64,000 nt of DNA from Escherichia coli (GTDB lineage: Bacteria > Pseudomonadota > Gammaproteobacteria > Enterobacterales > Enterobacteriaceae), in NCBI RefSeq assembly GCF_041886205.1, contig NZ_CP169029.1; one strand, written 5' to 3'. The stretch's first letter is position 1; each line of letters starts with the position of its first letter. The notes beneath the pieces are model-generated. The model was not told where the DNA came from. It ran no database searches and saw only the letters and a program-made list of their open reading frames with translations. The translations under genes were made by a program, and so were the position numbers. Below are positions 41,814 through 42,146 of this stretch, in pieces.

Positions 41814-42146
41814 TTAATGTGGTGTGCTTCGTGACAATAAATTAATAACCAACACACCGGCACAAATCAACATCATGCCTATAATGGCTGGCAGGTCCAA
41901 CCGTTGGCCGAAAAATCCCCATGATAGTAAGCTAATCAGGACAATACCGACTCCTGACCAGATAGCATAAGCAATCCCTGTAGGAATATAAGCCAGCGTC
42001 TGAGCTAATAACCAGAATGATGCACAATAACAAATAATTGTACCAACAGATGGCCATAACCGTGTAAAACCTTCTGAAAACTTCATTAAGGTTGTACCAA
42101 TGACCTCTGCAAGTATTGCACCACCAAGATAAATATAAGGATTCAT
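41814..42146 (-). CDS. emrE: small multidrug resistance efflux transporter EmrE
   Basis: 110 aa from MNPYIYLGGAILAEVIGTTLMK.., four TM helices with the conserved membrane-embedded Glu. Confidence 0.9.
   Translation of the reverse strand: MNPYIYLGGAILAEVIGTTLMKFSEGFTRLWPSVGTIICYCASFWLLAQTLAYIPTGIAYAIWSGVGIVLISLLSWGFFGQRLDLPAIIGMMLICAGVLVINLLSRSTPH

Follow-up and report, generated by a model that had tools for sequence, protein, structure and literature searches.

An intact emrE gene as low-GC accessory cargo of a decayed lambdoid prophage at the lambda attachment site of Escherichia coli

We analysed a 64,000-nucleotide stretch of Escherichia coli DNA (hereafter referred to as the window), in which the SMR transporter gene emrE lies within a prophage inserted between ybhB and ybhC. 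The ybhB–ybhC interval is the classical lambda attB. Two exact copies of the 15-bp lambda att core stand in direct orientation at the two ends of the prophage, against 0.11 matches expected by chance, and int and xis accompany one of them, which bears out the placement of emrE inside a prophage in a preliminary description of this DNA. The features of the locus, listed from the ybhC side to the ybhB side, are as follows.

45634–45648, minus strand: lambda att core GCTTTTTTATACTAA, exact copy, ybhC-side prophage end
43717–45560, plus strand: ea8.5, xis (44294–44512) and the lambda-type int (44490–45560), beside the ybhC-side att core
42898–43425, minus strand: remnant of the replication gene O, in which homology is confined to the C-terminal ~164 codons and extends no further than 43390
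42513–42901, minus strand: replication gene P, inactivated by the loss of 311 bp from its interior, with two open reading frame (ORF) fragments left
42214–42516, minus strand: ren, intact, 100 amino acids, upstream of emrE in the sense of the gene
42147–42213, minus strand: ren–emrE leader, 67 nucleotides (nt), 37% GC, with the Shine–Dalgarno sequence AGGAAAG and the −10-like sequence TACAAT
42162–42196, no strand assigned: perfect inverted repeat with 10-bp arms, GTTCAAACTG-N15-CAGTTTGAAC, within the leader
41814–42146, minus strand: emrE, ATG start, full length, encoding a 110-amino acid SMR proton/cation antiporter
41757–41782, minus strand: terminator-like hairpin, 11-bp stem and U-rich tail, 32 nt past the emrE stop codon
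41616–41765, minus strand: ylcJ, a small ORF of 49 hydrophobic residues, Pfam YlcJ-like, 27% GC, downstream of emrE
41403–41558, minus strand: ybcK′, the first 52 codons (N terminus) of the large serine recombinase gene ybcK
39542–41311, minus strand: ybcN (ninB-like), split by an insertion sequence (IS) into 41209–41311 (5′ part) and 39542–39897 (3′ part)
39898–41208, plus strand: IS629/IS1203 (IS3 family) in ybcN, with the target duplication CCA
38124–39542, minus strand: ninE, ybcO, rusA, ylcG and quuD (the nin/Q block), intact
25693–25707, minus strand: lambda att core, second exact copy, ybhB-side prophage end

The element spans only about 20 kb, short of a complete inducible genome, and is therefore a defective lambda-type prophage, located at lambda attB and carrying emrE inside it. 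The immunity region, the pR and pL promoters and the N-terminal part of O have been deleted, leaving the O remnant fused to the ea8.5 region; P is broken, the tail genes are partial and there are no head genes. On the best explanation of the locus, over half of the prophage genome has disappeared since integration at attB. A sister genome (strain wlxctx60, complete) lacks the IS and otherwise matches the region at 100% identity. Just inside the ybhB-side end, a gene for a sensor-domain diguanylate cyclase (26348–27679) adjoins a tail fibre assembly gene and is probably cargo as well.

In the direction of emrE, the neighbouring genes run O′–P′–ren–emrE–ylcJ–ybcK′–ybcN::IS629–ninE–ybcO–rusA. The gene thus lies between ren and a truncated serine recombinase, as had been described, with ylcJ also sitting between emrE and the recombinase fragment. 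An ORF at 41271–41558 is YbcK-like solely over its first 52 codons; the rest of ybcK was removed by a deletion of ~3.1 kb, the junction of which carries 9 bp of microhomology at 41403–41411. The picture of decay drawn earlier for the neighbouring genes fits O, P, ybcK and ybcN, all of which are damaged, and fails for ren and most of the nin genes; the phrase 'nin-gene remnants' has to be dropped, as ninE, ybcO, rusA, ylcG and quuD are intact and ybcN alone is broken. Within the IS629/IS1203 copy, the orfB frame is interrupted near 40665, so that the transposase may be defective, and the ALIL frameshift pseudoknot of the element lies at 40233–40349. We also considered whether ylcJ and ybcK form a precisely inserted mobile unit, and found this unsupported: the junction between strain 536 and K-12 is unclean, with ~75 nt of non-homologous sequence. 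Elsewhere in the same ~20-kb remnant (33497–37935) are a porin gene of ompC/nmpC-like type and the potassium transporter gene trkG, which in K-12 belongs to the Rac prophage; together with emrE, these bring the membrane transport cargo genes of the remnant to at least three.

The emrE ORF was listed as 41814–42200, by way of an upstream TTG start, and its ATG-initiated form occupies 41814–42146. The encoded protein matches solved E. coli EmrE chains (3b5d and others) over its whole length (residues 1–110 to residues 1–110, 109 of 110 identical, E = 1.2e-69) and scores 121.5 bits against Pfam PF00893 (Multi_Drug_Res), for which the gathering threshold is 23.7, so that the description as a full-length, 110-residue SMR transporter is confirmed. 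Alignment with K-12 emrE, the check proposed at the outset, gave 98.8% nucleotide identity and one differing amino acid. The sole residue change relative to both the solved protein and the K-12 protein is I100V, and Val100 is the commoner form (54 of 86 loci). Loss of the membrane glutamate or a truncation had been named as what would speak against the identification, and the alignment reveals neither: residues 1–110 are covered, and Glu14, the membrane-embedded proton and substrate site in helix 1, is kept within the motif AILAEVIGT. Tyr40, Tyr60, Trp63, Gly90, Gly97 and His110 of EmrE are likewise in place. As judged from these alignments, the gene is EmrE proper, a member of the Qac-type subgroup of the SMR family.

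The whole arrangement is already known, from the DLP12 prophage of K-12 and from phage genomes, Mathieu et al. (PMC6969025) having already pointed out EmrE in two genomes of lambda. DLP12 emrE (b0543) shares with the window gene its leader and the order ren–emrE–ylcJ–ybcK, and the two prophages also share the block ybcN–ninE–ybcO–rusA–ylcG–quuD, followed by an nmpC-type porin gene and essD–rrrD–rzpD. DLP12 resides at the argU tRNA gene with IntD, whereas the window prophage occupies lambda attB and has a lambda-type Int with Xis. In DLP12, ren is split by IS3 and ybcK, ybcL and ybcM are intact; the window, by contrast, has an intact ren, only 52 codons of ybcK, no ybcL or ybcM and a ybcN interrupted by IS629. 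Viable Bievrevirus phages (Lambda_4A7, Lambda_4C10, Perceval, 1W, 3W and others) encode an EmrE protein identical to that of the window, and the DNA of 4A7 matches the window at 97% over the segment from P through ren, emrE and ylcJ to the 5′ part of ybcK and at 95% over the nin block. Unlike the ~20-kb remnant, these phages are complete (~49–50 kb), with O, P and ybcK intact and an esterase gene. More distantly, qacE/qacEΔ1 and other integron- or plasmid-borne SMR genes resemble emrE in being small cation exporters of the same family on mobile elements; they differ in sequence (~44% identity) and in being integron cassettes with attC and sul1 neighbours, not occupants of a phage ren–nin slot. 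The present case stands apart in its integration site (lambda attB, not argU) and in how its genes have decayed.

The GC content of emrE (40.5%) and of the island in which it lies (35.8%) departs from that of the flanks, which reach 49% in ren, 53% in P and 50.5% in the 5′ region of ybcN. The leader had been singled out as AT-rich; at 37% GC it is, although the lowest-GC stretch of the locus (21–27% GC) lies downstream of emrE, not in the leader. Among 80 IMG/VR loci, the content after ren varies: the usual order is O–P–Ren–EmrE–YlcJ–YbcK, with ren–emrE–ylcJ–ybcK found in most of them, and YbcK is followed by nothing, by an esterase or by YbcL–YbcM, and then by YbcN. Another lambdoid prophage has unrelated small genes in the ren–ninB interval. 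The hairpin at 41757–41782 has a fold z score of −2.45, matches a terminator at consensus level only, and holds the ylcJ start codon in its 3′ arm. With its variable slot, deviant GC content and terminator-like hairpin, emrE is a low-GC accessory gene of the ren–nin interval, of the moron type or moron-like. A promoter of its own, the remaining moron hallmark, is represented only by a candidate below the scan threshold.

A second form of the gene provides the comparison from which selection can be estimated. The allele of strain 536 is 92% identical to the window emrE at the nucleotide level and lies at another chromosomal site, in an island between fliE and yedK that holds ybcL, ybcM and an nmpC-like porin gene, that is, cargo genes only and no phage genes; ren, ylcJ, ybcK and the nin genes are all absent. 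Its EmrE is one residue away from that of the window (T108A), and the ~70-nt leader is retained, with one mismatch in the inverted repeat. The same emrE–ybcL–ybcM island, of which the porin gene is reported here for strain 536, occurs in O111:H8 7-54 11A and in AR_0374, and among the three islands inspected the emrE ORF is intact in two and has an internal stop codon in the third. Between the window and 536 alleles, 26 differences are synonymous and one is non-synonymous (dS 0.42, dN/dS ~0.01), compared with dN/dS values of 0.09 for ybcL and 0.13 for ybcM, and two island copies from phylogroups B2 and B1 differ at six synonymous sites and no non-synonymous site. Across 5,426 complete E. coli genomes, emrE is present in 3,692 and absent from ~32%; in 2,284 of the emrE-positive genomes, the allele that matches best is the ~92% one.

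These substitution counts show that purifying selection on emrE is very strong. The greater part of this signal probably built up in living phages, which carried the gene as cargo with its neighbours intact, and the fliE–yedK island has the look of prophage cargo genes that have become fully domesticated. The earlier suggestion that emrE has been retained for its function amid decay is supported by the 26:1 ratio, by the phage-free island and by the 6:0 count between island copies; this evidence for retention is that of sequence, which does not address the naturally relevant substrate of EmrE. In ylcJ, the window and K-12 differ by no synonymous and eight non-synonymous changes, a pattern in which purifying selection on the protein is not apparent. 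Natural null alleles of emrE exist, namely E14Q in one of the IMG/VR loci, a change expected to abolish proton coupling, W31* in AR_0374 and a disrupted 3′ end in a metagenome-assembled genome (MAG) contig (L092). These alleles imply that emrE is dispensable in some backgrounds.

The leader between ren and emrE is conserved well beyond the synonymous sites of the gene. Phage and fliE contexts share no other upstream sequence, their upstream homology beginning only ~70 nt before the ATG, and the leader is near-invariant both in 86 loci and between two alleles with differences at ~32% of their synonymous sites: its last 55 nt contain two differences between the alleles, versus 26 at ~80 synonymous sites (Fisher p = 2e-5). 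Differences between the alleles increase along emrE (6, 7 and 14 in successive thirds, 5′ to 3′). The explanation of leader conservation as a mere 5′–3′ gradient of divergence is thus partly true, and was rejected as a full account, the leader still lying below the adjacent synonymous sites. The inverted repeat is unique in the window, with none expected by chance; it flanks TACAAT on both sides, its near end lies 15 nt from the ATG and immediately precedes AGGAAAG, and its 15-nt centre is invariant in 86 of 86 loci. Each of the arm variants among these loci breaks one pair and none compensates, which makes a covariation test impossible. As RNA, the leader forms the 10-bp hairpin with an overall energy no better than that of shuffled sequences (z = 0.10), and an RNA role is therefore unsupported by energy alone.

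A permissive Rfam scan of 38000–46000 yielded no riboswitch or leader family, its sole match being the IS3-family ALIL pseudoknot, and riboswitch control of emrE, of the guanidine-II or mini-ykkC type, was accordingly discarded. A scan of 100,044 species-representative genomes with the leader core recovered E. coli-type sequences only, plus one chance match, a 19-mer in a Bacteroidetes genome that has no emrE there. Two contigs binned into Lachnospiraceae and Collinsella MAGs (L092 and L093) carry an E. coli-type emrE with its leader and probably represent DNA of E. coli or a phage that was assigned to the wrong bin. A sigma-70 scan of the minus strand upstream of emrE returned nothing at the threshold of 9 of 12 matches or above, the best candidate having 8 of 12; read by eye, TACAAT (−37 to −32) is the candidate −10 element, preceded by a weak −35 element. 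A search of the literature for the emrE promoter or its regulation found nothing specific to either. A paraquat evolution study reported an adaptive IS1-type insertion 39 bp upstream of emrE, a site that by count falls within the loop of the inverted repeat.

We propose, tentatively and with doubts that outweigh our confidence, that the leader may act in cis as a dedicated regulatory element, holding the expression of a pump that is toxic in excess at a low and inducible level. This functional reading fits three observations: the leader is far more conserved than synonymous sites, is shared across contexts and received the IS1 insertion within it. The inverted repeat could serve as an operator for a repressor or as an RNA hairpin in read-through transcripts, the latter possibly coupled to a short ORF overlapping the stop codon of ren; conservation of a promoter alone may also account for the pattern.

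EmrE is an antiparallel homodimer of four-helix subunits that exchanges protons for cationic substrates through Glu14. Given its identity to the characterised protein at 109 of 110 positions, the EmrE of the window would form the same antiparallel four-helix homodimer. By analogy, its two Glu14 residues would alternately bind protons and cationic substrate, and the proton gradient would drive the export of quaternary and polyaromatic cations such as ethidium, methyl viologen and benzalkonium, and also of betaine and choline. PMC13300293 cites Bay and Turner for betaine export by EmrE, with an E14C control. Because pR and pL have been deleted, we infer that expression must start locally; transcription would begin from signals in the short conserved leader, and the hairpin after the emrE stop codon probably ends the transcript. 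The gene would persist through strong purifying selection, both in living phages and in phage-free chromosomal remnants. In K-12, the DLP12 emrE region was amplified under selection with paraquat and erythromycin, and emrE is reported to be induced by acid stress and by chloramphenicol (PMC10746267). Taken together, we assign a probability of about 0.93 to the reading that the locus holds a canonical emrE, carried as a low-GC accessory gene in a decayed lambdoid prophage at attB, working in the established way and kept by selection.

Of the alternatives to this reading, the one that survives best is that emrE is kept chiefly for the phage, as a gene of the early right operon that aids lytic growth or lysogeny, for example by altering membrane energetics or excluding competitors, and that the copies in decayed prophages are leftovers. 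The orientation of emrE, shared with O, P, ren, the nin genes and Q, means that it would be read from pR in intact phages, and this agrees with such a benefit, as do the identical EmrE protein of viable phages, the intact neighbours in most phage-type loci and the probable origin of most of the synonymous divergence in phage lineages. However, emrE stays with ybcL and ybcM in the three phage-free fliE–yedK islands (with the ORF intact in two), the island-type allele is the form best matched in 2,284 genomes, the B2 and B1 copies differ at synonymous sites only, and selection in K-12 acts on emrE as a host drug pump, all of which makes a mainly phage-serving role unlikely.

Slightly less likely again is that emrE is a silent passenger with no current function here, intact through the youth of the remnant or its own small size. 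AT-rich DNA typically attracts silencing by H-NS, for which this region is a candidate, and the deletion of the phage promoters, the lack of a strong local promoter in our search and the existence of natural null alleles would also fit silence. Neutral sequence, however, would not be expected to show a dN/dS of 0.01 at a dS of 0.42, or the 6:0 count between islands, and the adjacent ylcJ, with its 0:8 count over the same DNA, behaves quite differently; K-12 emrE, moreover, is reported to be inducible by acid and chloramphenicol. That the gene is another SMR subtype mislabelled as EmrE (a Gdx/SugE guanidinium exporter or an integron qacE cassette) has a negligible chance and is refuted by alignment and context: although all of these are PF00893 members of ~105–115 residues, the identity to EmrE at 109 of 110 positions (E = 1e-69) compares with just E = 1e-12 for the Gdx-type chains 6wk5 and 8vxu and ~44% identity for qacEΔ1, the leader contains no guanidine riboswitch or other Rfam family, and there is no integron context.

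As a discovery, the retained and canonical emrE of this prophage adds little: emrE in a lambdoid prophage is textbook knowledge for K-12, and EmrE has been reported in viable lambda-like phages. Its value is modest. Few genes of the efflux or resistance type are truly carried by infectious temperate coliphages, and this one is also fixed in phage-free chromosomal remnants; it ranks, too, among the most strongly constrained genes of its cargo set. The short leader, which itself looks constrained, may help to explain how emrE is regulated.
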